DNA of 64,000 nt from Deltaproteobacteria bacterium (lineage in GTDB: Bacteria > Myxococcota_A > UBA9042 > PHBI01). Shown in pieces: positions 34,669-57,686 of the stretch (its first letter is position 1; each line of letters starts with the position of its first letter). The position numbers and the translations under genes were made by a program. The DNA lies in NCBI GenBank assembly GCA_006226565.1, contig SBGO01000334.1:359-64358 (forward strand), read 5' to 3'. A model generated the notes under the pieces. That model saw only the letters and a list, made by a program, of their open reading frames with translations. It had not been told where the DNA came from and searched no databases.

Positions 34669-34782
34669 CGCGGAATCTCCATGCTCGTCATTCCCCCACC
34701 GACGCTGTGCGCCCACGAAAACGCAGTCACGGTGGACCAGCGAGGTCGCATTGACAAGGCGGGTAGGCGACGCGAGATGCTT

Positions 34783-34794
34783 GGTGCAGGCACC
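34783..34794. promoter_or_regulatory. inverted repeat GGTGC-AG-GCACC upstream of the activator gene; TTGACA lies at 34751-34756
   Basis: Read directly. It sits in the 138-bp divergent region between the minus-strand gene 32812..34668 and the regulator gene, 13 nt upstream of the regulator's ATG. Confidence 0.3.
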
Positions 34795-34806
34795 GGCGAG
34801 GGTTCG

Positions 34807-36465
34807 ATGGACACCACGATCGCGAGCACCCAGCGTTCACCCGTACTCCTGACGTGGCTGGCGACACGCAACGACCCCTACGAGCGAGACAAGTCCGGGG
34901 GCGCGTTCAAGGAGCCGCGCGTCTGGGGACCGACCTTGACGCTCATGGCCGACCCGGAATCTCCATACAAAGGGCGCATCGACGACGTCGTCGTCTTCCG
35001 CCAGGCCGGACCCAAGGCGGCGGACCACACGCGCGTCTACGAGGAGCTCGTCGCGGCCCTCGAGGAGCACGAGATGGCGCCGCGCCTCCACCCGGTCCTC
35101 TGGGACCACGACGACCCGACCGACCACGCCGCGATCTACGACTTCCTCCGGACGGAGGTCCCTCGCATCCGCCGTCAGTTTCGAGACCGCGAGCTGGTCA
35201 TTCACCTCTCGCCCGGCACGGCGTCCATGCACACAGTCTGGGTGCTGATGTGCGAGACCGGCTTCATTTCCCAGCCGTTCACCGCCGTGCAGTCCCTACG
35301 CCCCGGTGAACGTCGCGGCCGCGCGCCGGTCAACGCGCTCCGGCTCGGCGTCGACACCTTTTTCAAGCGCTGGCAGGAGACCAAGCCCGCCGCCGCGAGA
35401 CTCGATGACCACCAATCCCTCTGGGATCCGTCGCAGTTCCGCTCGACCAAGATGCGCGCCCTCTACGACGAAGCCCGGCGCGCCGCCCGCCTCAAGATCC
35501 CCGTCCTCATCCTCGGCGAGCGCGGGACCGGCAAGACCACCCTCGCCTCCTGGATCCGCCTCAAGAGCCCGTTCCGCAAGTCCGCGCTCGACTCGGCCTG
35601 GCCCGCCGTCCCCTGCGGGCAGTACACGAACGAGACGATGCGAGCCGAGCTCTTCGGCTACAGAAAAGGCGCCTTCACGGGCGCCACGACGCACAAGGCG
35701 GGGCTCCTCGCCGAGGCGAGCGGCGACACCCTCTTCCTCGACGAGATCGGCGACGTCTCGAAGGACCTCCAGCGCCTCCTCATCAAGGTCCTCGAGGATG
35801 GCACCTTCCAGCCTGTCGGCAGCACCAAGGTAGAGCGGACCGACGTCCGACTTCTCACCGCCACCAACCTCCCCGACAACGAGCTCCGCGGGCGCCTCGA
35901 CGCCGACTTCCTCGACCGCATCAGCGCCTTCACCCTCACCGTCCCGCCGCTGCGAGAGATCCCCGACGAGCTCGAGTGGCTCTGGCCGAACGTCCTCGAC
36001 GAGGCCGCGCGCCGCGCCGCCGCGCCGACCCGGTATGCCCAGCTCCCGAAGCGCCACCACGCCCGCTTTGTCTCGGCGCTCCAACGGCACCCGCTCCCGG
36101 GCAACATTCGCGACCTCTTTCGCGTCGCTTGGCGCTTCCTCGCCGCCCGCGCCGACGACGACGCCCCGCTCAACGTCGAAGACGCCGTCGACTACGCGCT
36201 CGCCGCGATCGACCGTGATGCGGCGCCGGATGGCTCGTCGCGCACCATCGCCCGCGCCTTCGCCGACATGGAGCCCCTCCCTCCATCCCTCGTCGCCGAA
36301 ACGCCCCTCGACCCCAACCGCGTCATCGACGACTTCAAAGCCTGGTTCGCCGCCGAGGCCCGCGCGCTCGGGCAGCGAACCGGCCAACCGCTGGGTGACC
36401 TCGTGACCGTGACGGACCGGACGCTGAGGAACTGGCGGAAGGATGATTCCGAGGCGCCGGAATAG
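34807..36465 (+). CDS. RtcR-like sigma54-dependent transcriptional activator (bacterial enhancer-binding protein): CARF-like N-terminal sensor domain plus AAA+ sigma54-interaction domain
   Basis: ORF 34681..36465; ATG at 34807 (MDTTIASTQRSPVLLTWLATR). The AAA+ core has VLILGERGTGKT (Walker A), AELFGYRKGAFTGA (the GAFTGA sigma54-contact motif) and LFLDEIGD (Walker B). The N-terminal block ELVIHLSPGTASMHTVWVLMCETGFISQPFTAVQ closely matches the RtcR CARF segment (from memory YLVHITTGTHVAQICLFLLTESRHFPARLVQ). No clear C-terminal HTH was seen. Confidence 0.75.
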   Translation: MDTTIASTQRSPVLLTWLATRNDPYERDKSGGAFKEPRVWGPTLTLMADPESPYKGRIDDVVVFRQAGPKAADHTRVYEELVAALEEHEMAPRLHPVLWDHDDPTDHAAIYDFLRTEVPRIRRQFRDRELVIHLSPGTASMHTVWVLMCETGFISQPFTAVQSLRPGERRGRAPVNALRLGVDTFFKRWQETKPAAARLDDHQSLWDPSQFRSTKMRALYDEARRAARLKIPVLILGERGTGKTTLASWIRLKSPFRKSALDSAWPAVPCGQYTNETMRAELFGYRKGAFTGATTHKAGLLAEASGDTLFLDEIGDVSKDLQRLLIKVLEDGTFQPVGSTKVERTDVRLLTATNLPDNELRGRLDADFLDRISAFTLTVPPLREIPDELEWLWPNVLDEAARRAAAPTRYAQLPKRHHARFVSALQRHPLPGNIRDLFRVAWRFLAARADDDAPLNVEDAVDYALAAIDRDAAPDGSSRTIARAFADMEPLPPSLVAETPLDPNRVIDDFKAWFAAEARALGQRTGQPLGDLVTVTDRTLRNWRKDDSEAPE

Positions 36466-36528
36466 CTTTTCCGAGACGCCGCCTCGCAGCGAACCAACCT
36501 CGCAGGCCCGGCCAGCATTCCCGTTAGG

Positions 36529-36544
36529 TTGTAACACCTTACAA
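36529..36544 (+). promoter_or_regulatory. AT-rich inverted repeat TTGTAA-CACC-TTACAA immediately upstream of the sigma54 promoter (candidate activator or IHF-type site)
   Basis: Read directly. It stands out as an AT-rich palindrome in a 70%-GC background, 15 nt upstream of the -24 element. Confidence 0.35.
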
Positions 36545-36558
36545 AGAGCGACCAGACT

Positions 36559-36574
36559 TGGCCCACGGCTTGCG
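36559..36574 (+). promoter_or_regulatory. sigma54 (RpoN) -24/-12 promoter: TGGCCC-ACGGC-TTGCG
   Basis: It matches TGGCAC-N5-TTGCW with correct GG-to-GC spacing (11 nt). The predicted TSS is about 36586, 27 nt before the first ATG of the downstream operon (36613) and directly downstream of the sigma54 activator gene. Confidence 0.6.
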
Positions 36575-36612
36575 TAGGTCCTCGGTGTCCCCGCCACCAC
36601 CGAGGCCACCGC

Positions 36613-36909
36613 ATGCAAGCGACGCTCAGCCTGACGCATCACGCCGCGTACCGCGCCCGCACGCGCAGCATCCCCGCCGAGGCGCTCGACGCGGCCATGA
36701 CGTTCGGGCGCCACCGCGCGGTCCGCAACGCCGACATCTACACCCTCGGCTGGCGTGAGGTCCGGGCGCTCGCCGCCCGCGGCATCGACGTCGCCCGCTG
36801 GGAGGGCGTCGAGGTCGTCTGCTCGCACGACGGCGACGTCCTCACGACCTACCGCAACACCAACGCTCGCGCGCTCCGCCGGCCCTACGGCGTCCGCCGC
36901 GCGGCGTGA
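36613..36909 (+). CDS. small DUF4258-like protein, first gene of the sigma54 operon
   Basis: ORF 36613..36909 (98 aa). LTHHAAYRARTRSIPAEALDAAMTFG resembles the DUF4258 H-A-x-x-R-x-x-x-R-x-I core. This assignment is tentative. Confidence 0.4.
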   Translation: MQATLSLTHHAAYRARTRSIPAEALDAAMTFGRHRAVRNADIYTLGWREVRALAARGIDVARWEGVEVVCSHDGDVLTTYRNTNARALRRPYGVRRAA

Positions 36910-37655
36910 TCCAGCCGCTCGCGCGGTCGGTGTTGCGAACCGACCGCGCGAGCCTCTCCAACGCGAACGTGCAAATCAGCCCAACCACAACGGAGTACCG
37001 CCTCATGGCCGGATTCAAAGACTTCACGACCCAGACCGCGCGCCCCCTCCCCGTCATCATCCTCGCCGACGTGTCCGGCAGCATGGAGGGCGGCGGCAAG
37101 ATCCAGGCGCTCAACCACGCCCTCCGCGAGATGCTCGAGGCCTTCTCGGACGAGTCGGACCTCCGCGCGGAGATCCACGTCGCCGTCCTCACCTTCGGCG
37201 GCACGGCCAAGGTCCACATCCCGCTCGCCACCTCCGCGAAGGTCCGCTGGAACGACCTCGGCGCCGGCGGGGGGACCCCGATGGGGCAGGCGTTCGAGCT
37301 GACCCGCGCGATGGTCGAGGACCGCGCCACCATCCCGGGCCGCGCGTACCGGCCGACCCTGGTCCTGCTGTCGGACGGCCAGCCGACCGACGCCTGGCAG
37401 CAGCCCCTCGCCGCGCTCCTCGGCAGCGAGCGCGCCAGCAAGGCATTCCGCATGGCCCTCGCCATCGGGGAGGACGCCGATCGTACGGTCCTCGCGGCCT
37501 TCCTCGCCAACCCCGAGGCGCGCGTCTTCGAGGCGCACGAGGCGCGCCAGATTCGAGACTTCTTCCAGCTCGTCACGATGAGCGTCTCGAGCCGGTCGCG
37601 GAGCGCCAACCCGAACGCCACCCCCGCCCTCCCCTTCGCCGGCTACGATGTCTGA
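36906..37655 (+). CDS. von Willebrand factor A (vWA) domain protein
   Basis: ORF 36906..37655. The GTG start overlaps the upstream stop (GTGA); an alternative ATG lies at 37005. MIDAS motifs are VIILADVSGSMEG, GGGTPMGQA and LLSDGQPTD. Confidence 0.7.
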   Translation: MIQPLARSVLRTDRASLSNANVQISPTTTEYRLMAGFKDFTTQTARPLPVIILADVSGSMEGGGKIQALNHALREMLEAFSDESDLRAEIHVAVLTFGGTAKVHIPLATSAKVRWNDLGAGGGTPMGQAFELTRAMVEDRATIPGRAYRPTLVLLSDGQPTDAWQQPLAALLGSERASKAFRMALAIGEDADRTVLAAFLANPEARVFEAHEARQIRDFFQLVTMSVSSRSRSANPNATPALPFAGYDV

Positions 37656-38346
37656 GACGCGCGTCACCGGCTGCTCCGTGCGCGGCCCCGCCCACGTTCG
37701 CGACGGCTCGCCCGGGCAGGACGCCTGGTCGGCCGTCGCGGAGCCCGTCGCCTTCGCCGTCGCGTGCGACGGGATGGGGAGCCGCCCCCTCGCCCACGAG
37801 GGAGCCCGCGCCGCGACTCGGGCAGCGCTGCGGGCGTGGCGTCTGTGGCGTCGGTCGAACGCAGGCAGCCCCGAAGATCTCGTGCGCCTCATCGAGGTCC
37901 TGTGGCGTCTCGACCTCGGCGGGATCGCCCCCGCCGAGGCCTGCACGACGTGCCTCGTCTACGCCGAGGACCTCCACGGCCGGGCCGTGGTCGCACAGCT
38001 CGGCGACGGGCTCATCGTGCGACGCTCGCCGGACGGCGCTGTCACGACACATCCATCGCGGAAGCTCGACTTCGGGACCACCCACGCGCTCGGCGCCCCG
38101 CACACCCTCGCGGACTGGTCCTTGGCCGTCGCCCCGCCGCTCGCGCCGGGAGAGTCGCTGCTCCTCGCGACCGACGGCGTCTCCGAGGACCTCCTCCGCG
38201 ATCGGCTCGACGGCCTCATGCGCTGGCTCCACGCCGAGCTCGACAGCCGGCGGGCCCCCCATCACTGGCTCCGCCGGGAGCTCCACCGCTGGCCGGTCGC
38301 TCACCACGGCGACGACAAGACCCTCGTCATGCTGAGGAGATCATGA
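37648..38346 (+). CDS. PP2C-family Ser/Thr protein phosphatase
   Basis: ORF 37648..38346 overlaps the vWA gene by 8 nt. PP2C motifs are VACDGMGS, LLLATDGVSE and DDKTLVML. Confidence 0.75.
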   Translation: MSETRVTGCSVRGPAHVRDGSPGQDAWSAVAEPVAFAVACDGMGSRPLAHEGARAATRAALRAWRLWRRSNAGSPEDLVRLIEVLWRLDLGGIAPAEACTTCLVYAEDLHGRAVVAQLGDGLIVRRSPDGAVTTHPSRKLDFGTTHALGAPHTLADWSLAVAPPLAPGESLLLATDGVSEDLLRDRLDGLMRWLHAELDSRRAPHHWLRRELHRWPVAHHGDDKTLVMLRRS

Positions 38347-39683
38347 AACGCGAACACCGAGTCGTCATCGACGAGAACGGCACCCGCTACAGCCTGACGA
38401 ACCGCATCGGCAGAGGCGGTCAGGGTGAGGTCTGGCGGACCGACAGCGCCCACCGAATCGTCAAGCTCCAGACGAGCTCCCAGAACCCAGAGGTCACGCG
38501 GCGGCAGTTCGTCTTCGTGCGACGGCTCGATCTGCGCGGGCTCCACGTCGCCAAGCCCATCGCCGTCCTCGCCCCGCCGGCGGTCGGCTACGTCGCGGAG
38601 TTCCTGAGCGACATGACGCCCATTCGAACGCTGATGGAAGCCCCCGCCGAGGACCTCGTCGCGTGGCACGTCAGAACCGGAGGCCTGCGCCGCCGGCTCC
38701 GCCTCCTCGCTCACGCCGGCGAGACGCTCGTGGCGCTCCACGGTCGCGGCATCGTCTATGCGGATGTGTCCGACAACAACGTCTTCGTCTCGGAGCCCGT
38801 CGACGCGAGCGAGGCGTGGCTCATCGACCTCGACAACCTCAGCTACGCCAGCGATCCCCAACGCGCGGTCTACACGCCCGGCTACGGCGCCCCCGAGGTC
38901 GTCGCCCGGCGGGCCGGCTGCACCTCCCTCTCCGACGCGTGGGCCTTCGCCGTCCTCGTGTGGCGCGTCCTTACCCTCGGCCACCCTTTCGTCGGCGACT
39001 GGGTCGACGAAGGCGAGCCGGAGCTCGAAGACCAGGCGATGGCCGGCGAGCTGCCGTGGGTCGAGTGCGAGGACGACGACCGCAACCACTGCTCGACCGG
39101 TCTCCCCCCCGAGGTCACCGTGGGAAACCTGCTCCTCGGGCTCGCGCGCCGGACCTTCGAAGCCGGCCGCAGCGACCTGCGGGCGCGCCCCGGGCTGTCG
39201 GAGTGGGTCCACGCGCTCCACGCGACCGCCGACCAGACCCTGACCTGCCACGAGTGTACGGCGACCTACCTCGCGTCGGCGCCGGAGTGCCCGTGGTGCG
39301 AGGCGCAGCGGACCGAAGAGCTCCCGCTCAGGCTCGTCCGCTGGGACCCGGACCACGGCGTCGTCCGCTCTGCGGTCGCGCTCCGGCCGGTGCCGGTCAC
39401 CACCTTCCGCACCACCTTGACGCGCCGCACGACGGAGGGCGCGAGCGGCCTCATGGGCCGGGAGCCGCACGTCGAGCTCGCGCTCGTCGGGCGCGGCGTG
39501 ACCGTCCACGCCGCCGCAGGCCGCTCCGTGTGGGTCGGCCGACTCGATCGCTCCTCGGGGAAGCTCGTCGAGCGCCACGACGCCTCGTCTCGTCCCCGCA
39601 TCGTGCCGCGCAGCGGCTGGGTCATCTTCTTCGACGACCCGGCGAGGCCGCAGCGCGTCGGCCTGCTCGGAGGTGCCGCGTGA
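38343..39683 (+). CDS. Hanks-type Ser/Thr protein kinase with a C-terminal zinc-ribbon region
   Basis: This is the C-terminal 446 codons of ORF 37764..39683. The ATG at 38343 overlaps the PP2C stop (ATGA). Kinase motifs are GRGGQGEVW (Gly loop), IVKL (Lys), YADVSDNNV (catalytic loop), DLD (DFG-like) and YGAPE (APE). CHEC...CPWC forms a zinc ribbon. Confidence 0.8.
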   Translation: MKREHRVVIDENGTRYSLTNRIGRGGQGEVWRTDSAHRIVKLQTSSQNPEVTRRQFVFVRRLDLRGLHVAKPIAVLAPPAVGYVAEFLSDMTPIRTLMEAPAEDLVAWHVRTGGLRRRLRLLAHAGETLVALHGRGIVYADVSDNNVFVSEPVDASEAWLIDLDNLSYASDPQRAVYTPGYGAPEVVARRAGCTSLSDAWAFAVLVWRVLTLGHPFVGDWVDEGEPELEDQAMAGELPWVECEDDDRNHCSTGLPPEVTVGNLLLGLARRTFEAGRSDLRARPGLSEWVHALHATADQTLTCHECTATYLASAPECPWCEAQRTEELPLRLVRWDPDHGVVRSAVALRPVPVTTFRTTLTRRTTEGASGLMGREPHVELALVGRGVTVHAAAGRSVWVGRLDRSSGKLVERHDASSRPRIVPRSGWVIFFDDPARPQRVGLLGGAA

Positions 39684-42600
39684 AGATCCACGAAGTCACC
39701 AGCGGCGTCGCCGCGACCCTGCGCGTCACCAACCCGGAGGGCGCCTTCAGCCCGCCGCCCGCGACCGGCGATGAGCTGGTCCTGGTCTCGTCCTCCGATC
39801 AGATCCTCGCCCGCGCCGGCGACCTGGTCTGGCCCGTTCGAGGCACCACGCCGCTGGATCACGACGCGCTCGTTCGCGTGGTCGACGGCGCCGGTCCGTT
39901 CGTCGCATTCGTCGCCCGCTGTGTGGACGACACCATGGTCGTCGAGACGCGACGCTTCCGATCCGAGGTTCGGCTCGGTGAGCCGCTCGACATCGGCCTC
40001 GACGACAAGGCCCTCGACGACCTGCGCCGTACCACCCGTCGCGGCGGCAGCGTCGTCGACATCGTGCGGTGGCTATCGGAGCAGTTGCTGCTCCCACCGA
40101 TCCCCGGAGGGCCCTCCGAGCTCGCCCGCTTCGTGGTCGCAGGCGACCTGCGCGACCGGCCGGACGTCTTCCGCATCTACGGCCGCAGGCTGGCCGTCGA
40201 CGTGCGCCGTGCGGATGGGAAGCTCCGGGTCGAGCGCGCGGCCCGCGGCGCGACGCCCGGGAGGGAGCCGCTGACGCTGATGCTCGCCCCGGTGAGGTTC
40301 GTGGACGCGACCCTGACGGCGGAGCTCACGACGGAGGCCCGAGCCGCGCTCGAGCAGGCGGTGGCCGACGCTGGCAGCTACCTCGCGATGTGGGAGCACT
40401 TCCACGCGCTCGACGTCGCGACCACGGAGCAGCAGGCCCGAGCCTTCGGCGCGGTGGAGTACACCTCGCGGAAGCAGGGCCCCGAGCGCGGCTGGACCTT
40501 TCGCCTCGTGAAGGACGAGTCCCTCGCCGAGCGACTCGCCGTGCTCGCCGACGGCCACGGCGTGACACTCGAGGTCGGCGAGCGCGCACCGTCCTTCGAC
40601 GGCACCGGGAGGCCGAGGCGGAAGGAAGAGGGTCAGAAAGTCCCCTTCTCCAGCCACGTCACCCACCTCGACGCCGGCAAGGGGCGACTCGATCTCGCGC
40701 CGGCCGACGATGAGGCTGCAGCACCACCAGAGAAGGGCTTCCTGTTCATCGCGCGCGCTGGCGATCGGACGCGTCAGGCCCGGCGCGAGCGCGCCGAGGA
40801 GGCGCTCCGAAACGGGACCTGCCCGATGCCCCAGCTCGGCCTCCTGATGGAAGGGCGGCCCGCCCCGGCCGCTCGCCTGCCGCGGCGACCCGCGATGAGC
40901 CCCGCCGTCCGGGCGCTGTTCGGCCCCGACGGGCCCACCCAGCGACAGCGCGAGGCCATCGAGCGCGCACTGAACACGCCCGACGTCTGCCTCATCCAGG
41001 GGCCCCCGGGCACCGGCAAGACCAAGGTCATCACCGCTATCGAGGCCCGCGTCGCGGAGCTGGCCGACGAGGGCCTCGAGGTCTCGCACCGCGTCCTCGT
41101 CACCGCGGCCCAGCACGACGCCGTCGAGAACGTCGCCCAACGGACCGACGTCTTCGGCCTGCCGGCCGTCAAGATCGGCCGGCGACGAGGCGACGACGGC
41201 GACGGCGAGGACGCCGTCGATCGGTTCCGCGAGGACCGCATCGACGCGCTGCGTGCCAAGCTCCGCGTCCCCCCCGAGGCCGAGCGGCTCGCGAAGGCGC
41301 GCGCGATGGCGGTAGCCTGCATGCGCACCCGCGCGCTCCCCGACGCCCAGGCGCGACGCGTCCGCGAGATCGCGTCCACGCTCGACGGCCTGCTCCCCCC
41401 GGCGCTCGTGGACCGCGCGCTGGACCGCGCGGCCAGCCTGGAGTCGCGCTCGGACGCCGGAGACCCGGAGCAGCGCGAGCTCGAGCTGCGCGCCGCCCGC
41501 GGGATCCGCGTCACCCCCGGCCCATTCTCCGATGACGGCCCGCTCCAGGCCGCCAAGGCGCTGCGGCGCCTCGACGACCGACTGACGCCCGACGAGCGCG
41601 CCTACCTCGAGCGCTGCGCTCAGGTCGAGCAGGATGTGGCGCCCGATTGGATCGATGCCGGTGCGCCGCTCCGTGACGCGCTCATCGACCGCCTCTCCTC
41701 GGCCGCGACGCCGACCGAGGCGCGCCTCGACGACGACACCCAGCGGCTCCTCCTCACGCTCCTCGACGCCGTGGACCACCGCTACGCAAGCGCCGAACTC
41801 GGAGACGGCGCCGCGATCGCCGGCTTCATGCGAGACCTCGAGGGCGACCCCGAGGGCGTCCGCGAGATGCTCCAGCACTACACCGTCGTCCTCGCGGCGA
41901 CGCTCCAGCAGGCTGCCGGGCGCCGCATGATGGCGGCGCGCGGTCTCACCAGCGGTAGCGCCGAGTTCGAGACCGTGATCGTCGACGAAGCCGCGCGAGC
42001 CCACCCCCTCGACCTGTTCATCCCGCTCAGCATGGCGAAGCGGCGCGTCGTCCTCGTCGGCGACCACCGCCAGCTCCCCCACCTGCTCGAGCCCGATGTC
42101 GAGCGTCAGCTCGCCGACGGCGTGGAGTCCGGCAGCGTCGGCCAGGAGGTCCTCGAGGCGGTGCAGGCCAGCCTCTTCCAGCGGCTCTGGGAGTCGCTGC
42201 GACACCTCGAGAAGCAGGACGGGATCAAGCGAACCGTGACGCTCGACGTTCAGTACCGGATGCATCCGGTCCTCGGCGACTTCATCAGCCGAACCTTCTA
42301 CGAGCACCACGGCGACGGGCGCGTCGAGAGTCCGCGCCCCGCGGGCGACCTGGCCCACCAGCTCCCGGAGTATCTGCGGGACGGCGAGGGTGTCCCAGCG
42401 GCGTGGCTCGACGTACCGGCCCACACAGGCGCGGAGGTGCCTGGGCGCAGCAAGCGGCGGCCCGCCGAGGCGAAGACGATGGCGCGCGAGGTGCGCCGCC
42501 TGGTCGACGCGGATCCGACGCTTACTTTCGGCGTCATCGCCTTCTACGCCGGACAGGTCGACGAGATTGGTGAGGCGATGCTCAAGGAGGGGCTCACCGA

Positions 42601-42961
42601 GCGGACCCACGACGGGCGCGGCTGGGAAGTCGCCGCGGGCTACCGAACGACGGTCGACGCGGACGGACGGCGCGTCGAGCGGCTGCGCGTCGGGACCGTG
42701 GACGCCTTCCAGGGCCGAGAGTTCGACGTCGTGCTGTTGTCCGTGACCCGCTCCAACACGCTCCCCGGCGCCACGCCCGAGCAGCAGCGCCGGAAGTACG
42801 GGCACCTGATGCTCGACAACCGCCTCTGTGTCGCGATGAGCCGACAAAAGCGGTTGCTAATCGCCGTCGGCGACCTCTCTTTCGTGCGTGAGGCCGAGCC
42901 GCTGCGCGCGCTGCGGGAGCTTGCCCGACTCTGTGGAGGAAGCCATGGCGTCATTCGATAA
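39680..42961 (+). CDS. SF1 Upf1/DNA2-like helicase with an about 500-aa N-terminal domain of unknown function
   Basis: This is the C-terminal 1093 codons of ORF 38663..42961. The GTG at 39680 overlaps the kinase stop (GTGA) and is preceded by GGAGG. Helicase motifs are CLIQGPPGTGKTKV (I), TVIVDEAARA (II), VLVGDHRQLP (III), YRMHP (IV), VDAFQGREFDVVLLS (V) and VAMSRQKRLL (VI). Confidence 0.8.
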   Translation: MKIHEVTSGVAATLRVTNPEGAFSPPPATGDELVLVSSSDQILARAGDLVWPVRGTTPLDHDALVRVVDGAGPFVAFVARCVDDTMVVETRRFRSEVRLGEPLDIGLDDKALDDLRRTTRRGGSVVDIVRWLSEQLLLPPIPGGPSELARFVVAGDLRDRPDVFRIYGRRLAVDVRRADGKLRVERAARGATPGREPLTLMLAPVRFVDATLTAELTTEARAALEQAVADAGSYLAMWEHFHALDVATTEQQARAFGAVEYTSRKQGPERGWTFRLVKDESLAERLAVLADGHGVTLEVGERAPSFDGTGRPRRKEEGQKVPFSSHVTHLDAGKGRLDLAPADDEAAAPPEKGFLFIARAGDRTRQARRERAEEALRNGTCPMPQLGLLMEGRPAPAARLPRRPAMSPAVRALFGPDGPTQRQREAIERALNTPDVCLIQGPPGTGKTKVITAIEARVAELADEGLEVSHRVLVTAAQHDAVENVAQRTDVFGLPAVKIGRRRGDDGDGEDAVDRFREDRIDALRAKLRVPPEAERLAKARAMAVACMRTRALPDAQARRVREIASTLDGLLPPALVDRALDRAASLESRSDAGDPEQRELELRAARGIRVTPGPFSDDGPLQAAKALRRLDDRLTPDERAYLERCAQVEQDVAPDWIDAGAPLRDALIDRLSSAATPTEARLDDDTQRLLLTLLDAVDHRYASAELGDGAAIAGFMRDLEGDPEGVREMLQHYTVVLAATLQQAAGRRMMAARGLTSGSAEFETVIVDEAARAHPLDLFIPLSMAKRRVVLVGDHRQLPHLLEPDVERQLADGVESGSVGQEVLEAVQASLFQRLWESLRHLEKQDGIKRTVTLDVQYRMHPVLGDFISRTFYEHHGDGRVESPRPAGDLAHQLPEYLRDGEGVPAAWLDVPAHTGAEVPGRSKRRPAEAKTMAREVRRLVDADPTLTFGVIAFYAGQVDEIGEAMLKEGLTERTHDGRGWEVAAGYRTTVDADGRRVERLRVGTVDAFQGREFDVVLLSVTRSNTLPGATPEQQRRKYGHLMLDNRLCVAMSRQKRLLIAVGDLSFVREAEPLRALRELARLCGGSHGVIR

Positions 42962-44405
42962 AGACACTCCGGTGCTTCGCTTCACGAAGCTGCGGAAGCC
43001 GGACGTGCGGTGGGTCCTCTGGCCCGTCCTGGCGTGGCGCGTGGTCGCGCCCGTGCCCCAAGGGCGCCGGTTGAACCTGCTCCAGAAGGCCGCGCTCGGG
43101 TTGGTGCGTGCCGGTGTGACGACGGCGCAAGATGTGTCGGAGCGGCTCCTGATCCTGCCCGACCTCGCGGCCCTCGTGCTCACCGAGCTGCAGGGGATGC
43201 GCCTCGTCGACGAGCTCGGCGCGCTGACACCGAGGGGCGCCGAGCTCGTCGACGAGCTCGACGTCGACCCGCCCGAGGCCCTCGAGGTCGGACACGTCCT
43301 CGCCGATCCGTTCACAGGCAGCCTCTGGCCGCGGCTCTTGACCGGGGACCTCCCGCTGGCGGAGGTCGAGCAGAACGACCAGGGGTGGCCGGTGCTCCTG
43401 AGCGGAAGTCCGGGCGCCCCCTGGCGCGACCATGCCTTCTGCGTGCTGCCGCGACGCGACGACGCCGTGGTCATCGCGCGTCCCGGGGCGAAGGACATCC
43501 TGAGGGCGGCGCGGCGCGGCCGGCGCGTGGCGCAAGCGATGGGCGACGCCGCCCCGGCGCTCCGGCTCGTCTCGTTCATCGACGAGCGGCCGGAGCCCTA
43601 TCTCGCCGCGCTCCCGGTGGTCTCGCACGCCTCGGGCGACTGGATCGTCCTCGATCCCTTCGGCGGCGGCGCGTCCTTCGAGCTGCGCCGGCAGGTCGAG
43701 CGACGCCTCGACGTGCAGCCCGGACTCCGTGCCTGGCTCGCACCGCTCGTGGGGGGCGACGTCGTCGAGGCGACCACCGCGGAGCTCCAGCGACGCGCGG
43801 CGTGGGAGGTCGAGGAGCAGCTGACGCTGGGCGTACGCCGCTTCGCGGGCGTCCACGACCACCTGGTGGCGATGCAGCGAGCGTGGCTCGAGGCGCAGGC
43901 GTGGGAGTCCCCTGACGACAAGGTCGACGACGTGCTCGTCAAGGCGCAGCGCGCGGTGGAAGCGACGATTCGCGAGGTCCTGCGCGGGCACTCCGATCCT
44001 GACGAGCGCCTCTACCTGCAGCTCGCCCCTTCCCACGTGAAGGGATATCAGCGCCAGAACCGCGGCCTCCTGGACGACATCGCTGCTGGGCTCGGCTTCG
44101 CCTCGCCGCTACCGACACAGCTCTCCGGTGTGAAGCCCGGCAAGGTCCAGAGCGCCGAGCAGAGCCTGCGCGGGAGCCTCCGACCGCTGCTGCTCGCCAC
44201 GCTGCTCGCCGCGGACCGGAACGACCGGCACCCACTGCGGCGTTCCGCCAGCGCCTGTCCTGACCTGCTCGAGCGCCTCGACGCCCTGGCCTCCGCCCGC
44301 GACCGCGCCGCCCATGACGGCGACGGCGCGTGGCCCGAGCGCCTCCCCGTACACCTCGAGACGACCTACGACATCGTTCGACACCTCCTGCTCCACAACG
44401 CCTGA
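42945..44405 (+). CDS. hypothetical protein (486 aa)
   Basis: ORF 42888..44405. ATG at 42945 (MASFDKDTPV) is preceded by GGAGGAAG and overlaps the helicase 3' end by 17 nt. No motif was recognised. Confidence 0.5.
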   Translation: MASFDKDTPVLRFTKLRKPDVRWVLWPVLAWRVVAPVPQGRRLNLLQKAALGLVRAGVTTAQDVSERLLILPDLAALVLTELQGMRLVDELGALTPRGAELVDELDVDPPEALEVGHVLADPFTGSLWPRLLTGDLPLAEVEQNDQGWPVLLSGSPGAPWRDHAFCVLPRRDDAVVIARPGAKDILRAARRGRRVAQAMGDAAPALRLVSFIDERPEPYLAALPVVSHASGDWIVLDPFGGGASFELRRQVERRLDVQPGLRAWLAPLVGGDVVEATTAELQRRAAWEVEEQLTLGVRRFAGVHDHLVAMQRAWLEAQAWESPDDKVDDVLVKAQRAVEATIREVLRGHSDPDERLYLQLAPSHVKGYQRQNRGLLDDIAAGLGFASPLPTQLSGVKPGKVQSAEQSLRGSLRPLLLATLLAADRNDRHPLRRSASACPDLLERLDALASARDRAAHDGDGAWPERLPVHLETTYDIVRHLLLHNA

Positions 44406-44433: not shown

Positions 44434-46962
44434 ATGACCAAGCCGCGCAAGCACCCGAAGTCCCGTCCGCAGCCCAGCCCGAAGAGCGCCGAGAAGAGCG
44501 CGTCGACCGAAGAGGTCGCCGAGGTCGAGACGATCGAGGCAGAGGCAGCCGCCCTGACCGGGTCGCTCGGCGCCCCCCCTGCGCCCGCGGAGCCGCAGAG
44601 CACCGACGTCGCGCTCGGCACGCTGGTGGCCCGCGCTGCGAAGGCCCTCGAGGAGCTCAAGGGGCACCTCGCCACGGCGAAGACGACCCGCGACGCAGCC
44701 GAGCGCCGGGCCAGGCAGGTCGCGGAGGAGGCGGACGCGTTGCAGGCCGAGCGGACCGCGCTCGAGGAGGCTCGACGCGCCGCCGAGTCTCGGGACGCCA
44801 GCCTCGCCGAGCGCGAGGCGTCCGTCGTGGCGCGGGAGCTCGACGCCGAGCGCGGATTCCTCGCGCACAAGGCGGAGATCCTCGGGGGCCTCGAGGCGGA
44901 CGTGAGCGCGCTCCGCGCCCAGCGCACGGCGCTCGCCGACGAGCTGCGGGGGCGCCGAGAGAGCGCGGAGGAGGAGGCGCGCAAGAAGGTGGAGGCGCAC
45001 GAGCGCAAGTGGGCCGACGCGCAGAAGAAGCGGAGCGAGCACGCGGCGAAGGCGCGCCTGGAGCTCGACGAGGCGCTCGCTCGCGACCGTGAGACCGGCC
45101 TCGCCGAGACCCGCAAGAAGCTCCAGGAGGAGCGAGAGCGGGTGCGTGCAACCCTGGACGCGGAGCGGTCAGCCCTCGATGCGGAGATCATGGCACGGCA
45201 CGGCGCGCTGCAGGCCCACTCGGACGCCCTCGACACGCGCGAGCGGGAGCTTCGGATCACCGAGCGTGACCTCCTCGTCGATCAGGACCTCATGAAAGAG
45301 GAGCGCGAGGCCCTCGACAAGAAGGTCGCCCGCCTCGTGGCGGAGTCGACCGAGCAGCTCCGGCACGAGCTCGCGAGCGCGACCACGCTGCTGAAGGAGG
45401 CGCGGGCTCAGCGTGATGGCTACTGGGCCGACCTCGAGGCCCGACGCGAGCTGGACCGCCGCTTCGGCGGACGAACGCCCGAGGAGATCCTGGCCCACCT
45501 CCAGCACGTCGAGCGGGAGCGTGACGAGCTGACGCGCCAGCTCCGCGAGCGCCCCGACGAGCGCGCGGCGACGCGGCTCGCCAACCTCGAGCGCGAGCGC
45601 TCCGACTGGCACGACCAGCGCGCGAGCCTCGAGGTGGATCTCGCCAACGCGCGCTCCGAGCTGAGCACCCGGCGCATCGCGGCCATCGAGCTCGAGGGCC
45701 TGCGGCGGGAGAAGGAGGCCCTGCGCACGACGAACGCGCTGCTCGACCAGGCGCTCTCCGAGCTCGACGCCAAGGTCACGGAGCTCACCCACCAGGACGA
45801 CAAGCGCAACCCGATGACCGCCCTCACGGCCCTGGACGCCGACGAGGTTCTCCAGCTGCCGCGTCGCACGGTCGCGCCGCTGCACGGCGCAACGCCGGAC
45901 CTGCGCGCGTTCGCGGAGGATCTGCGTCACCGCATCGCCCATGGTGTCGAGGGGCGGACCCTCTACTACACGGCGGAGGACATCCGAGCGTTCCTCGGCG
46001 GCCTCGCGATGACGCAGCTCATGCTCCTCCAGGGCATCTCCGGGACGGGGAAGACGAGCCTGCCGCTCGCCTTCGCGAGCGCGGTCGGGGGCGACGTGGA
46101 GGTCGTCGAGGTGCAGGCGGGCTGGCGCGACCGACAGGACCTGGTCGGCTACTACAACGCCTTCCACAAGCACTACTACGCGACGAGCTTCCTGCAGGCG
46201 CTCTACCGGGCGGGCACGCCGGCGAACAAGGACCGCGTCTTCCTGATGGTCCTCGACGAGATCAACCTGTCCCGGCCCGAGCAGTTCTTCGCCGACTTCC
46301 TGTCCGCGCTGGAGCAGCCGACGGAGAAGCGCCGCCTCACGCTGGTCAACGACCCGATCACGGCCGCGCCGAAGCTCCTCGTGGACGGTCGCCACTTGCC
46401 GATCCCGCCGAACGTGTGGTTCGTCGGGACGGCCAACCACGACGAGACGACCGTGGCGTTCGCGGACAAGACCTACGATCGGGCCCACGTCATGGAGATG
46501 CCGCGGAACACCGACGCAGCGCGCTTCGAGGTCGAGCACAAGAACGGCCGCGGCACCATCTCGCACCAGGGGCTCATCGACGCCTTCGCCGCCGCCGCGG
46601 CCAAGCGGAGCAACGAGGTCGAGCACGCGACGCAGTGGCTGCGCCAGGCGCCGTTCGCCGAGACCCTCGGGCGTCGCTTCCGGGTCGGCTGGGGCAACCG
46701 CCTCGAGCAGCAGCTGGGGCGCTACCTCCCCGTCATCGTCGAAGCCGGGGGCAGCGTGGGTGAGGCGATGGATCACCTCCTCGTGACGAAGGTCTTCCGC
46801 AAGCTCGCGGACCGGCATGACGTGCGGGCGGAGGCGCTCGGCACCCTCAAGGACGAGCTCCTCACGACCTGGCTGGACCTCGACAAAGCTCACGGCCCCG
46901 AGCGCTGCGCGGCGCTCCTCGACCGCGAGATCGAGGCGAAGCTGGGGGAGGATCTGGCTTGA
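44434..46962 (+). CDS. McrB-like AAA+ GTPase/ATPase with an about 480-aa N-terminal coiled-coil region
   Basis: ORF 44314..46962. ATG at 44434 (MTKPRKHPK) is preceded by AAGGAAAG. The AAA region has LLQGISGTGKTS (Walker A), LMVLDEINLSRPEQFFADFLSALE (a McrB-type DEIN...F..L..LE Walker B plus sensor) and FVGTANHDE. The upstream half is highly charged (heptad-like ER/EA/AL repeats). Confidence 0.65.
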   Translation: MTKPRKHPKSRPQPSPKSAEKSASTEEVAEVETIEAEAAALTGSLGAPPAPAEPQSTDVALGTLVARAAKALEELKGHLATAKTTRDAAERRARQVAEEADALQAERTALEEARRAAESRDASLAEREASVVARELDAERGFLAHKAEILGGLEADVSALRAQRTALADELRGRRESAEEEARKKVEAHERKWADAQKKRSEHAAKARLELDEALARDRETGLAETRKKLQEERERVRATLDAERSALDAEIMARHGALQAHSDALDTRERELRITERDLLVDQDLMKEEREALDKKVARLVAESTEQLRHELASATTLLKEARAQRDGYWADLEARRELDRRFGGRTPEEILAHLQHVERERDELTRQLRERPDERAATRLANLERERSDWHDQRASLEVDLANARSELSTRRIAAIELEGLRREKEALRTTNALLDQALSELDAKVTELTHQDDKRNPMTALTALDADEVLQLPRRTVAPLHGATPDLRAFAEDLRHRIAHGVEGRTLYYTAEDIRAFLGGLAMTQLMLLQGISGTGKTSLPLAFASAVGGDVEVVEVQAGWRDRQDLVGYYNAFHKHYYATSFLQALYRAGTPANKDRVFLMVLDEINLSRPEQFFADFLSALEQPTEKRRLTLVNDPITAAPKLLVDGRHLPIPPNVWFVGTANHDETTVAFADKTYDRAHVMEMPRNTDAARFEVEHKNGRGTISHQGLIDAFAAAAAKRSNEVEHATQWLRQAPFAETLGRRFRVGWGNRLEQQLGRYLPVIVEAGGSVGEAMDHLLVTKVFRKLADRHDVRAEALGTLKDELLTTWLDLDKAHGPERCAALLDREIEAKLGEDLA

Positions 46963-48968
46963 AGCTGCGCCCTCGACTCGCGCTCCCTTCCGCGCCGAAT
47001 GAGCCCCCTCCGAGGGCGCTGCTCTGCGACGCCTGGACGATCCACGGGCAGCGAACCAGCGGCGAGGCCGGCGCCTACCCGGGGCCGGTCGTCGGGAACT
47101 GGCCGGACGACCTGGAGACCGACGCCGCGCAGCGGCTCTCCGAAGCCGTCGGGAGCGAAGCCGGCTGGGAGACGCTCGCGGCGACCCCGGCGATCGCGCG
47201 GAAGCTCAGCGAGCGAGCGCGGCTGCAGCCGCTCGACCGCGAGCTCCTTCGCCACCTCCATCATCTGCAGGAGGTCTGTCATCGCCCACGCCTCCACCTG
47301 CGCGTGGAGGACGAGCGTCTTCCCGTGGCGCGCGCGCGGCGATGGCCCACCCGGGCCGTGGCGGACCTCGTGTCCCACCCCGGAGACTGGGAACACCGCA
47401 CGCTGCGAAGCGTGCAGCCGCGACGCATCTTGGCGCGACAGATCGAGGACGAGTGGAACCTGTACGAGAACCGCGTGGCGGTCCGCCTCGTCGACCGGCT
47501 CCTCACCTATCTCGCGCGTCGGATCGAGGAGCTTCGGCGCATCGAGACGACGATGGCGCAGCGACGCGACCAGGGCGATCACACCAAGTCGTCACGGTGG
47601 CGCGTCCACCGCATCATGACGGCCTGGGCCGAGAGCCTCGACGCCGACACCGAGCACGCGCTGAGCGACACCCAGCGCGCGCTTGCGCACGCGCAGCAGA
47701 AACTCCAGGCCCTGACCGACACCCCCCTCTACCGGCACATCCCGCTGCGGGCGACGGTCCCGCTGGCGCTCCAGCAGACGAACATCCTTTCCAACGACGC
47801 CCACTATCGCAAGGTCGCCGCGTTGTGGCGCGCGTGGTCCCGGCACGGCTACAAGAAGCCGGAGACGCGGCTTCAGCGCGAGCGTCGGCGCCAAGAGGAG
47901 GCGCACGCGTGGGACCGCTTCGTGCTGCACCTGGTCGCGCGCGCAGCGACAGCGCTGGGCTGGACTGCGAGCGGCGACGCGCCCGCGTGGCGGCTGGAGA
48001 AACCCGGAGCGACAGACGTGACGGTGGAGGTCTCCGAATCCGGAGCCGTGACGCTGCACGCGGGGGGGGCGGGCCGACTCGCCTTGGTGCCGCTCTGCGC
48101 CGTGCTCGAGTTTGCCGATGCGCAGGCCGTCGACGCTGCGCTCCAGCCCTGGAGTGACAGTGAGGTCGAGGTCGTCGGGATTCACGTCGGCGGCGTGGCC
48201 GGCAAGGTCGACGCGGACCGGGCGACGGGCTGGCGGTTCGGCGACCACGCTGTCCTCCTCCCGGCATCGCCGTGGGCGATCGACTCGGAGGAGCGTATGG
48301 CGCGGCTCCTCAATGGCTGGTTGGCCCGTCACGCGAGCCCGACGTACCCGGTCCACGTGGAGGCGCGAGCGCTCCCGCAGCCGCCTCCCTGGGAGTGGTT
48401 GATCAAGAACGATCAACACATTGTCGCGCTGCGCGCTCCGACACGACGCGAGCACCAAGACGCCACGACGTGGTGCCAGCGAGAGCAAACGAAGCTCGAG
48501 CGCGCCGCGGAGCAGGCACGAGCGGCCAAGCAGGCGTTCTCTCGCGCACCGCTCACCGCGATCGGCGTGTTGAGCGACCTGATCCACACCGCCGCCCGGC
48601 TCGAGGACCTCGCGTCGTGCCCGGTGTGTGGTGGACGCGGTCACGTCCACCCGCGCCCCGGCCGCGCACCTGACGGGAGCGACGCGACGTGGTGGGCGAG
48701 CTGTCCCGGCTGCGGCGCCGAGTGGGGCCTGCGTGCCTGCACCACCTGCGGTGACCGCTTTCCGGTCCTCTTCCCCCATCTCAGCCAAGAGACTCGGGCG
48801 AGCCTGGAAGGCCTCGCCGCTGCCGACTGGCCGGACCGCGCGCTCGGCGCGGATGCCTGGGCACAGCCGTGCCGCGGCGACTTCCCTCGACACGCCCGCT
48901 GCCCGACCTGCGGCAGCTGTTCGAGCGGCGAATGCCGACACTGCTCAGCGCCACCGGGAGGGCACTAA
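46959..48968 (+). CDS. Cys-rich partner protein of the McrB-like ATPase (possibly McrC/DUF2357-like N-terminus; several C-terminal CxxC zinc ribbons)
   Basis: ORF 46959..48968; the TTG start overlaps the upstream stop. The C-terminal CPVCGG...CPGCGAEW...CTTCGD...CPTCGSCSSGECRHC gives at least four CxxC pairs. I could not find a convincing PD-(D/E)xK motif. Confidence 0.45.
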   Translation: MKLRPRLALPSAPNEPPPRALLCDAWTIHGQRTSGEAGAYPGPVVGNWPDDLETDAAQRLSEAVGSEAGWETLAATPAIARKLSERARLQPLDRELLRHLHHLQEVCHRPRLHLRVEDERLPVARARRWPTRAVADLVSHPGDWEHRTLRSVQPRRILARQIEDEWNLYENRVAVRLVDRLLTYLARRIEELRRIETTMAQRRDQGDHTKSSRWRVHRIMTAWAESLDADTEHALSDTQRALAHAQQKLQALTDTPLYRHIPLRATVPLALQQTNILSNDAHYRKVAALWRAWSRHGYKKPETRLQRERRRQEEAHAWDRFVLHLVARAATALGWTASGDAPAWRLEKPGATDVTVEVSESGAVTLHAGGAGRLALVPLCAVLEFADAQAVDAALQPWSDSEVEVVGIHVGGVAGKVDADRATGWRFGDHAVLLPASPWAIDSEERMARLLNGWLARHASPTYPVHVEARALPQPPPWEWLIKNDQHIVALRAPTRREHQDATTWCQREQTKLERAAEQARAAKQAFSRAPLTAIGVLSDLIHTAARLEDLASCPVCGGRGHVHPRPGRAPDGSDATWWASCPGCGAEWGLRACTTCGDRFPVLFPHLSQETRASLEGLAAADWPDRALGADAWAQPCRGDFPRHARCPTCGSCSSGECRHCSAPPGGH

Positions 48969-56545: not shown

Positions 56546-56644
56546 CCGACGCAGAATCGGGCCCCATCCCGCTGGCGTCAATCCGTCCCTGGAACAGCGA
56601 GGGCTGCTGGGCGACCGGGCCGGTGGGCCCGGTCGCCCACGACG

Positions 56645-57530: not shown

Positions 57531-57686
57531 CCCGAATGGGACACCTCCGCCACGGCCGGACGCGCCTCACACGCGACCACGCAGCACGACGCCGGGGTCG
57601 CTGAGCCCCAACGGTGGGGACCGTGAACCCGCCCGGCGCCGCCAGAAGGTGATGCCCTCCGCGCGTGGCTCGCGTATGGTCCCCGC

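Follow-up and report, generated by a model that had tools for sequence, protein, structure and literature searches.

The plus-strand operon of the window (the whole analysed stretch of 64 kb) is likely to be a CoCoNuT superoperon controlled by an RtcR homolog through a sigma-54 promoter, P1, and a second sigma-54 promoter on the minus strand, P2, would serve a single gene under a different activator. CoCoNuT systems are widespread, are predicted to act as RNA-targeting defence and, in the literature searched, are described computationally only. Their control by RtcR-like CARF proteins was argued by analogy, without a mapped promoter or binding site, in a text that uses the word "promoter" once (PMC11090510). 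Our literature search found no mapped promoter or UAS for CoCoNuT-associated RtcR homologs and no sigma-54 control of defence systems; relative to PMC11090510, the -24/-12 consensus, the CGGAA-N6-TKCCG dyads and the spacing of these dyads are new. A conserved -24/-12 element combined with a tandem dyad at fixed spacing makes RtcR-like control of CoCoNuT directly testable.

P1 (TGGCCCACGGCTTGC, plus strand, 36559-36573, or 36574 with the G that follows) lies 94 nt past the stop codon of the bEBP gene and 54 nt before the ATG at 36613, with a predicted TSS at ~36585. It reads TGGCCC-N5-TTGC, with the GG and GC doublets one helical turn apart, as in sigma-54 promoters; the -24 box is TGGCCC and not TGGCAC, departing at -22 (C for A). 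An earlier note on this DNA had proposed sigma-54 promoters here and on the minus strand, both within 70 nt of the first start codon of their operons, and the motif TGGCCC-N5-TTGCG is present at 36559-36574 of the plus strand just as it described; the distances from the start codons are 54 nt (P1) and 66 nt (P2). Footprinting bears out the promoter assignment of P1, as an equivalent -24/-12 element occupies this position in 26/26 related cassette loci from many phyla, 81–140 nt past the bEBP stop, and GG, T(-15) and G(-13) are invariant in all of them. In the closest relative (locus L090, 80% identity), TTGGCCCGCAGCTTGCG (TTGGCCC-N5-CTTGCG) stands at the P1 position in a block that is 88% identical, compared with 44–59% for the adjoining spacer. 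The relatives with 65–70% identity that come closest have TTGG or TTGA instead of TTGC as their -12 box, which weakens the canonical -12 GC. The elements in the relatives were located by a weighted score; a strict TGG[CT]-N8-[TG]GC search past the bEBP stop gave almost no matches and was dropped because relatives often have TCGC, TTGG or TTGA for a -12 box. A TGGCAC at 34618 on the minus strand was also considered as a promoter and rejected, since it falls within the coding region of the divergent gene and has a poor -12 box.

Taken by themselves, the motif counts are at chance level. The pattern TGGC-N7-TTGC has 2 matches in the window against 1.30 expected (41 of 100 shuffles reach 2), and the weighted score of P1 (11.0) is tied with that of 9 other, mostly intragenic, sites. 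Sites scoring at least 11 number 11 in the window compared with 17.8 ± 4.2 in shuffles, and such a score is expected in ~2% of random 260-nt strand segments; P2, at 12.0, is the top site of the window. High-GC genomes yield many GG...GC matches, and both elements could on these grounds be coincidental, with the operons served by sigma-70-type promoters or by read-through. We regard this as highly improbable, as what raises the two promoters above chance is where they lie and how they are conserved across related loci: the position is kept in every P1-type locus across phyla with the key bases invariant, and in 3/3 loci for P2, the blocks are conserved amid diverged flanks, and a search of both promoter regions gave no sigma-70-type match. 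Neither was a sigma-70-type promoter or a terminator found between the bEBP gene and the operon, and inside the operon no such promoters or terminators exceeded chance.

Between P1 and the first gene lies a conserved leader (plus strand, 36580-36605) with an inverted repeat, CCTCGGTG (36580-36587) and CACCGAGG (36598-36605), whose 3' arm covers the Shine-Dalgarno sequence GAGG. The leader is 85% identical to that of the closest relative; no consensus RNA structure was found across the more distant relatives because the window and the closest relative have a deletion relative to the other loci. The RNA folded from the predicted P1 TSS was no more stable than shuffled sequences (z = 0.41).

The gene upstream of P1 encodes a 552-aa RtcR-like bEBP with CARF-AAA+-HTH architecture (plus strand, 34807-36465), counted from Met43 of a 594-aa ORF that starts at 34681; its homologs are ~550 aa long and span ~91% of this ORF. 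It matches Pfam Sigma54_activat (E=2.6e-40) and, over residues 53-588, the PADLOC model RtcR_PspF1 CARF_AAA_HTH (E=3.3e-142), and its GAFTGA motif is intact. The adjacent gene thus encodes a true bEBP, as had been claimed, and it is also the sole one in the window, where six-frame searches gave one sigma-54 AAA+ domain and one GAFTGA. BLASTP aligned the CARF and AAA+ parts with E. coli RtcR at 29% identity (HLSPGT of the CARF part against HITTGT). The score against the RtcR equivalog model NF038308 was 191.5 bits, below the cut-off of 650 that marks orthologs of RtcR proper; neither rtcA nor rtcB was found near the gene, and its target is co-directional and not divergent. Judged by these comparisons, the protein is a member of a paralogous RtcR-like subfamily and not RtcR itself. 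No RpoN box was found in the window, which is part of one contig of a MAG. A metagenome scan with a single protein retrieved 9 loci, and the closest relative was found by an exact-protein look-up. Among cultured bacteria, Archangium violaceum Cb vi76 has the cassette (locus L010).

The strongest candidate for the binding site of this activator is a pair of CGGAA-N6-T(T/G)CCG dyads, 22 bp apart, that overlaps the final codons and the stop codon of the bEBP gene itself. The distal dyad (CGGAAGGATGATTCCG, 36436-36451) is centred at ~-141 relative to the predicted TSS, within the codons for RKDDSE, and the proximal one (CGGAATAGCTTTTCCG, 36458-36473, centre ~-119) straddles the stop codon TAG (36463-36465). 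Exact CGGAA-N6-TKCCG occurs in the window in two copies only, namely this pair. The density of dyads is 10.3 per kb in a 121-nt zone around the bEBP stop and 0.034 per kb elsewhere (~300-fold), and at least one dyad is present in 23/29 loci, a recognisable CGGAA dyad not being found in the other 6/29. The census comprises 39 sites in 24 loci (21 coding, 12 across the stop codon, and 6 non-coding) and two reading frames; the sites are flanked by C in 32/39 and by G in 38/39 cases, positions which both lie outside the constraints of the search pattern. Across loci the dyads repeat every 21–22 bp and stand 78–144 bp from the -24 box, and a spacing of 94–97 and 116–119 bp to the -24 GG is common to 11 close relatives and to two loci (L014 and L015) with a different gene order (promoter, small gene, bEBP). 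In these two, the dyads precede the promoter by 94 and 116 bp, and the 3' end of the bEBP gene has none. The dyads are likely the enhancer, a conserved candidate activator site that the bEBP would bind through its HTH, 60–90 bp further upstream than the AT-rich palindrome on which attention had been focused.

Other roles for the dyads are quite unlikely as a replacement for the enhancer, be it as a roadblock, a terminator or attenuator of the bEBP gene, a site for another protein, or a by-product of peptide conservation. The first dyad, where it lies in the coding tail, is always in one reading frame and encodes R-K/N-x-x-S/A, so that part of its conservation could be at the protein level, since the coding tails are homologous; and insulation of the bEBP gene from the operon would be useful because no classical terminator separates them. 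However, copies of this 16-mer that span the stop codon use a second frame and further copies are wholly non-coding, the encoded residues vary (R/G; K/N; S/A) while GGAA and TKCC are fixed, and in L014 and L015 the dyads track the promoter and not the bEBP 3' end. A 5-bp stem without a T-run does not make a terminator, and enhancers of bEBPs typically have both this repeat length and this distance from the -24 box. A roadblock is compatible with an enhancer role, and we see a modest chance that the dyads double as both: parked activator dimers would stop read-through and then act as enhancer once CARF is triggered. If true, a defence system with the potential for suicide would be under a switch that is gated by infection and leaks almost nothing. 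The placement of the candidate enhancer within the last codons and stop of its activator is an arrangement retained across phyla; in one locus (L033), TCGTTCG repeats 21 bp apart stand in place of the CGGAA dyads.

The operon downstream of P1 opens with a 98-aa protein (36613-36909), annotated as DUF4258 or BrnT-like (RelE-fold). Sixteen of 17 members of its family match PF14076 (DUF4258; best E=1.2e-7), the gene follows the bEBP in more than 20 loci, and the equivalent small gene was called BrnT-like by others (PMC11090510); a profile search against solved structures returned no significant match in support of this likeness. A TerY-P triad follows (37005-39683), made of a VWA protein (37005-37655, Pfam VWA_2), a PP2C phosphatase (37648-38346, PP2C_2) and a Ser/Thr kinase (38343-39683, Pkinase E=9e-11), with starts refined against the closest relative. 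The triad and the BrnT-like gene thus stand beside the RtcR homolog as accessory genes, in an order kept in more than 20 loci. Next is a CnuH-type UPF1-like SF1 helicase of 1093 aa (39680-42961; Pfam AAA_11/AAA_12, NCBIfam IGHMBP2-family helicase, PADLOC MkoA E=1.8e-86), 75% identical to its homolog in the closest relative; a longer helicase ORF, 38663-42961, was rejected, as comparison with that relative shows that it masks the kinase gene in another frame. In the window and in this relative, the helicase adjoins a 486-aa gene (42945-44405, 72% identical) that we consider a candidate CnuE, i.e., a wHTH and HEPN-type effector, with a weak wHTH match (E=0.0093) and two RxxxxH strings (RFAGVH, RDRAAH) in its translation. 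The candidate CnuB, a McrB-like AAA_5 NTPase of 882 aa (44434-46962; AAA_5 E=2.3e-5, PADLOC PDC-M26A E=6.8e-41), and the candidate CnuC, McrC-like with a weak DUF2357 match below the cut-off (46959-48968; E=0.0022), have homologs in L016 and L020. The last plus-strand gene, after a gap of ~110 nt, encodes a type IV restriction-like PLD-ResIII helicase-DUF3427 protein (49078-52197; Pfam, PADLOC mREase_IV E=3e-257, start refined against locus L091).

In its predicted gene content and order the operon fits the RtcR-associated type II/III-A CoCoNuT superoperons, loci that have been described before (Bell et al., eLife 2024, PMC11090510), with the RtcR homolog at the 5' end followed by BrnT-like, TerY-P and CnuH genes, the candidate CnuE, CnuB, and CnuC genes and then a co-directional restriction-type gene. 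The activator has the CARF-AAA+(GAFTGA)-HTH architecture of RtcR from E. coli and Salmonella, and the region as a whole resembles the canonical rtcBA control region, which is laid out as UAS, IHF site and -24/-12 element (PMC9650030): in both, an activator site is followed by an AT-rich or IHF region and a -24/-12 element ~50 nt before the first gene. The differences are that the C-terminal DNA-binding part has no detectable similarity to that of E. coli RtcR, that the target is downstream and co-directional whereas rtcBA is divergent from the RtcR gene, that the enhancer overlaps the stop codon of its own activator, unlike in rtcBA, and that the cargo consists of defence genes instead of RtcB ligase and RtcA cyclase. 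The dyads also invite comparison with NtrC-type enhancers, with which they share a pair of sites ~120/140 bp upstream, spaced by an integral number of helical turns, although the activator family and the site sequence are different and the sites here lie within or at the end of the activator ORF and not between genes. The NtrC sites of glnAp2 are tandem dyads roughly 100–140 bp upstream of that promoter. Sigma-54 promoters are essentially silent without an activator, which fits an operon whose first gene is toxin-like and whose predicted products include HEPN-type nucleases.

We therefore propose a course of events in which the activator encoded just upstream would bind both dyads (36436-36473) and oligomerise once its CARF domain is triggered, presumably by a ligand. 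It would then loop over the AT-rich, bendable spacer, which holds the lineage-specific palindrome, and spend ATP on opening the closed complex of the sigma-54 holoenzyme. From its predicted start at ~36585, the transcript would cover the genes for the BrnT-like protein, the TerY-P triad, CnuH, CnuE, CnuB, and CnuC, and perhaps reach the type IV restriction-like gene too.

The palindrome in this spacer, which separates the -24 box from the candidate UAS, is TTGTAA-CACC-TTACAA (36529-36544, centre ~-48), a perfect AT-rich 6-4-6 repeat in DNA of 71% GC. It is present as had been reported and is unique: at a tolerance of up to 2 mismatches the 64 kb hold this one match and no other, with 0 expected; its reading as a conserved site for the activator or IHF was not borne out. 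In the closest relative, whose sequence there is GC-rich, only 50% of its positions are identical, and in locus L088 only GTTGTWACAC is shared near this position. Against the IHF consensus WATCAANNNNTTR, which specifies 9 positions, it agrees at 6 on each strand and does not qualify as an IHF site; the best IHF match of the window's spacer has 3 mismatches and lies outside the palindrome. The spacers of the relatives are AT-enriched (45% vs 35%) and contain IHF-like sites with at most 1 mismatch in 8 of 26 loci, compared with 1.22 expected. By these comparisons the palindrome is a lineage-specific feature, not a conserved element, and the least conserved part of the region, despite being its most eye-catching one. 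Three further readings were rejected by inspection: a degenerate third dyad, with which it agrees at 4 of 10 core positions, an FNR/CRP-type box (wrong spacing) and a sigma-70 -35 element (no -10 element after it). Another suggestion is that an additional lineage-specific regulator, e.g., a repressor, uses the palindrome as its operator and gives P1 a second control layer in this organism only; a perfect repeat of this kind is not expected by chance, and a protein bound directly upstream of the -24 box could block looping or the holoenzyme. We consider this rather unlikely, as the palindrome has no second copy in the window, is not conserved in the closest relative, and no candidate regulator was found. 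The hexamer ACACCT, reported in both upstream regions, does occur in both, at 36534-36539 by P1 (1 nt from the position first given) and at 57541-57546 near P2; this second copy is on the plus strand and so in opposite orientation relative to P2. With 18 occurrences of ACACCT/AGGTGT in the window and no conservation found in relatives, the sharing is attributed to chance.

P2 (TGGCATGGGGCTTGC, TGGCAT-N5-TTGC) was confirmed on the minus strand at 57529-57515, 1 nt from the coordinates of the earlier note, 66 nt before the ATG at 57463 and with a predicted TSS at ~57503. Footprinting supports it as a sigma-54 promoter, as the 26-nt block CTGGCATGG(G/C)GCTTGCGA(T/A)GCGG is kept in both known homolog loci (L091 and L092, a pair close to each other). 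In these two the downstream gene is preceded by a 153-aa gene, which is missing from the window, so that P2 is intergenic here. Further upstream, a GC-rich block with GGGG-N8-CCCC (minus strand, 57591-57619, centre ~-100) shows invariant columns in the three-way alignment with divergent DNA on both sides. No CGGAA dyad was found near P2 within 1 mismatch and this block is dissimilar to the dyad; it is a candidate UAS for a different bEBP.

This bears on the earlier proposal that both promoters form one regulon of the local bEBP and that the palindrome works P1 as the site of this activator or of IHF. Both promoters have good -24/-12 matches near start codons, the window encodes a single bEBP, and the palindrome is statistically unique at a place where relatives have AT-rich or IHF-like DNA. 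Nevertheless, we judge the proposal unlikely, because the palindrome is poorly kept in the closest relative and falls short of the IHF consensus, a typical UAS would have its centre farther from the promoter, the conserved dyads are located elsewhere, P2 has its own, different upstream block, and the gene it precedes is also found in loci without such a bEBP nearby.

That gene encodes a 272-aa TPR-like protein (minus strand, 56645-57463; weak TPR_14 match, the same ORF being called by NCBI) with only two homologs. Six nt past its stop codon begins a perfect 14-bp GC hairpin (56608-56639; dG -34.7 kcal/mol, z = -4.47, with 0/200 shuffles equally stable), at which the P2 transcript probably terminates or has its 3' end. 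The following gene, for a 1455-aa HIT-PLD-helicase-S24 protein (minus strand, 52178-56545; Pfam, NCBI start), is preceded by a sigma-70-like pair, TTGACG (56581-56576) and GATTCT (56558-56553) separated by N17, that is common to L094 and L095. With the hairpin after the first gene and with different upstream neighbours of the helicase gene in L094, L095, and L096, P2 is probably not the promoter of the whole convergent operon, as had been assumed, and probably drives the TPR-like gene alone, served by another activator through its GC-rich upstream block. The helicase gene travels alone and probably has its own sigma-70-like signal.

The gene array was established by GC3-based gene calling and domain scans. 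On the plus strand, the gene of the bacterial enhancer-binding protein (bEBP, 34807-36465) is followed by genes for a 98-aa DUF4258/BrnT-like protein (36613-36909; DUF4258 is matched by 16 of 17 members of its family), a VWA protein (37005-37655), a PP2C (37648-38346), a Ser/Thr kinase (38343-39683), a UPF1-like SF1 helicase (39680-42961), a 486-aa wHTH/HEPN-like protein (42945-44405), a McrB-like AAA_5 protein (44434-46962), a McrC-like DUF2357 protein (46959-48968) and a PLD-helicase-DUF3427 type IV restriction-like protein (49078-52197). Two minus-strand genes, encoding a 272-aa TPR-like protein (57463-56645) and a HIT-PLD-helicase-S24 protein (56545-52178), converge on this array. The BrnT-like and VWA genes are separated by 95 non-coding nt (36910-37004); at the four junctions that follow, the genes overlap by 4-8 nt. 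The bEBP, the only one found in the window, as the earlier note had stated, carries the GAFTGA motif and matches the PADLOC model 'RtcR_PspF1 CARF_AAA_HTH' over its full length (E = 3.3e-142). Its identity to E. coli RtcR across the CARF and AAA+ parts is 29% and its score is under the RtcR equivalog cut-off, which makes it, by sequence, an RtcR-like paralog and not RtcR. The annotated 594-aa ORF (start at 34681) is probably 42 codons too long, as homologs begin with MDTTIAS (34681-34807). The activator gene may have a promoter of its own, with a perfect TTGACA (34751-34756) located 51 nt before the likely start as its -35 box.

The array, BrnT-like gene included, matches the RtcR-associated type II/III-A CoCoNuT superoperons, predicted anti-phage defence systems (Bell et al. 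2024, PMC11090510). P1, the proposed sigma-54 element downstream of the bEBP gene, would be what switches on a defence locus of a type already known. In that study RtcR-like activation was predicted to act via an unspecified upstream activating sequence (UAS) and no promoter was mapped; our literature search found no mapped promoter for such loci in later papers.

All strings named in the earlier note were found in the sequence, the coordinates of the second element being off by 1 nt. P1 (TGGCCCACGGCTTGC, 36559-36573, plus strand) lies 54 nt upstream of the ATG at 36613, and P2 (TGGCATGGGGCTTGC, 57529-57515, minus strand) 66 nt upstream of the ATG at 57463. In this window of 71% GC, TGGC-N7-TTGC has two matches vs. 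1.30 expected from composition, with at least two in 41 of 100 shuffles, and sites with a weighted sigma-54 score of at least 11 number 11 vs. 17.8 ± 4.2 in shuffles; P2 has the top score, and P1 is level with nine other, mostly intragenic sites. With counts and scores this near chance, the promoters must be judged by context and conservation, not by sequence statistics alone. The ACACCT said to be common to both upstream regions is noise, because ACACCT/AGGTGT occurs 18 times in the window and is not conserved among relatives.

Relatives of the bEBP were gathered from genomes and metagenomes, and the order bEBP, small gene, VWA, PP2C, (kinase), helicase is shared by more than 20 loci, which belong to Myxococcota, Planctomycetota, Beta- and Gammaproteobacteria, Latescibacteria, Desulfobacterota and others. 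In 26/26 cassette loci the bEBP strand carries a -24/-12 element 81-140 nt past the stop codon of the bEBP gene; by the window score counts, about 2% of random 260-nt strand segments should hold a motif scoring at least 11. GG at -25 and -24, T at -15 and G at -13 are invariant; T at -26 (24/26), C at -23 (25/26), A at -22 (23/26) and C at -21 (22/26) are nearly so, and -12 is C in 18 and G in 6 loci. The closest relative, L090 (80% protein identity), carries TTGGCCCGCAGCTTGCG, sharing the unusual CCC, and is 88% identical to the window in the element and 85% in the leader. The stretch that separates the operon from the bEBP gene contains no sigma-70-type promoter or plus-strand terminator. 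Seven loci (L001, L003, L004, L040, L081, L086, L087) combine a perfect -24 box TGGCAC with a non-consensus -12 box (TTGG or TTGA), whereas the window and L090 combine an imperfect TGGCCC with the consensus TTGC, a pattern that could reflect compensation between promoter halves. The leader also holds an inverted repeat (CCTCGGTG / CACCGAGG, 36580-36605) whose 3' arm covers the Shine-Dalgarno GAGG and whose 5' arm would be cut by the predicted start (~36585); no common leader structure was found among more distant relatives, in which the short GC hairpin preceding the Shine-Dalgarno sequence differs from one to the next.

When the surroundings of the bEBP stop codons were aligned, a motif emerged, CGGAA-N6-T(T/G)CCG, mostly in two copies 21-22 bp apart. 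The window's only exact copies are a distal dyad (36436-36451) and a proximal one spanning the TAG stop codon of the bEBP gene (36458-36473), with centres ~141 and ~119 nt before the predicted start (36585); they are 79% identical in L090, with all core bases unchanged. At least one dyad occurs in 23/29 loci, at a density of 10.3/kb in the 121-nt zone around the stop codon vs. 0.034/kb elsewhere in the same loci. Conservation here appears to concern DNA and not peptide, because only 21 of 39 sites are coding, 12 straddling the stop codon and 6 being fully non-coding; they use two different reading frames; GGAA and TKCC are fixed although the amino acids encoded change (R or G; K or N; S or A); and the flanking C (32/39) and G (38/39), neither set by the search pattern, are conserved. 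The decisive case is L014/L015, two loci ordered promoter, small gene, bEBP: here the dyads precede the promoter GG by 94 and 116 bp, which matches the window's spacing (95 and 117), and there is none at the end of the bEBP gene. The P1 enhancer is thus likely the dyad pair, not the palindrome, and we infer that the bEBP binds it through its own HTH. This tandem dyad overlapping the activator's stop codon is what is new here; the gain is incremental, in that promoter and operator are defined for a system described recently and, in the literature searched, by computation only, and its main value is that the proposed CARF-gated control of CoCoNuT becomes directly testable. L033 lacks a CGGAA dyad and has two TCGTTCG repeats 21 bp apart just past the bEBP stop (7600-7660), which look like a diverged enhancer of the same periodicity.

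The palindrome TTGTAA-CACC-TTACAA (36529-36544) is real and, for this genome, unusual, occurring once in the window even at 2 mismatches vs. 0 expected, but lineage-specific: L090 has unrelated GC-rich sequence at its position (50% identity, with 59% in the spacer before it and 44% between it and the -24 box). It matches the IHF consensus at just 6/9 positions, and its centre at -48 is too near the promoter for a typical enhancer. It is, however, located within the segment from dyads to -24 box, which across the family is AT-richer than the loci (45% vs. 35%) and contains IHF-like sites with at most 1 mismatch in 8/26 loci vs. 1.22 expected. This three-part arrangement of UAS, IHF site and -24/-12 element is also that of canonical rtcBA. 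A segment that is locally bendable or bound by an architectural protein is the most economical reading; an operator specific to this lineage is conceivable but less likely. In the regulation of P1 the palindrome is peripheral.

The TPR-like protein behind P2 has only two homologs (loci L091 and L092). Upstream of both, CTGGCATGG(G/C)GCTTGCGA(T/A)GCGG is conserved at equal distance to the start codon. A second block, GC-rich and containing GGGG-N8-CCCC, is conserved ~75-90 bp further upstream, and the DNA between these two blocks has diverged. P2, too, thus appears to be a genuine sigma-54 promoter, equipped with an enhancer of its own. Both proposed promoters hold up, P1 at 26/26 loci and P2 at both homolog loci, but their regulation looks different from what the earlier note suggested. 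Common control by the local bEBP is made unlikely by the absence of a CGGAA dyad near P2 (within 1 mismatch) and of an RtcR-like bEBP near the TPR-like gene at the two homolog loci. P2 is probably no operon promoter either: in relatives, the TPR-like gene is followed by a different gene, and in the window, 6 nt past its stop codon, starts a perfect 14-bp GC hairpin without U-tract (56608-56639, minus; dG -34.7 kcal/mol, z = -4.47), probably a terminator or 3'-end stabiliser. The upstream neighbour of the HIT-helicase gene differs in each close relative, and TTGACG-N17-GATTCT (56553-56581, minus) ends 7 nt before its ATG; matching pairs in the relatives L094 and L095 (TTGACG-N17-GATGCT and TTGCGT-N17-GATGCT) suggest that this gene has a sigma-70-type promoter and an mRNA almost without a leader. 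For these reasons P2, separate from P1 control, most likely serves a single gene under another activator, which is unremarkable since Myxococcota encode many bEBPs (PMC12316311).

The type IV restriction-like and HIT-PLD-helicase-S24 genes have 20 nt of their 3' ends in common (52178-52197; 3767-3786 in L091) and encode paralogs 36% identical over ~700 aa, which looks like a conserved convergent pair. Genes in 29800-56600 have a GC3 of 0.78-0.89 vs. 0.92-0.98 in the flanks, as would fit a defence island gained by horizontal transfer; the TPR-like gene (0.92) resembles the flanks. More distant RtcR-like bEBPs (31-39% identity; L043-L074, e.g., Pseudomonas L063 and L066) have a CnuH-related SF1 helicase gene ~3-5 kb upstream on the same strand, an arrangement different from that of the window cassette.
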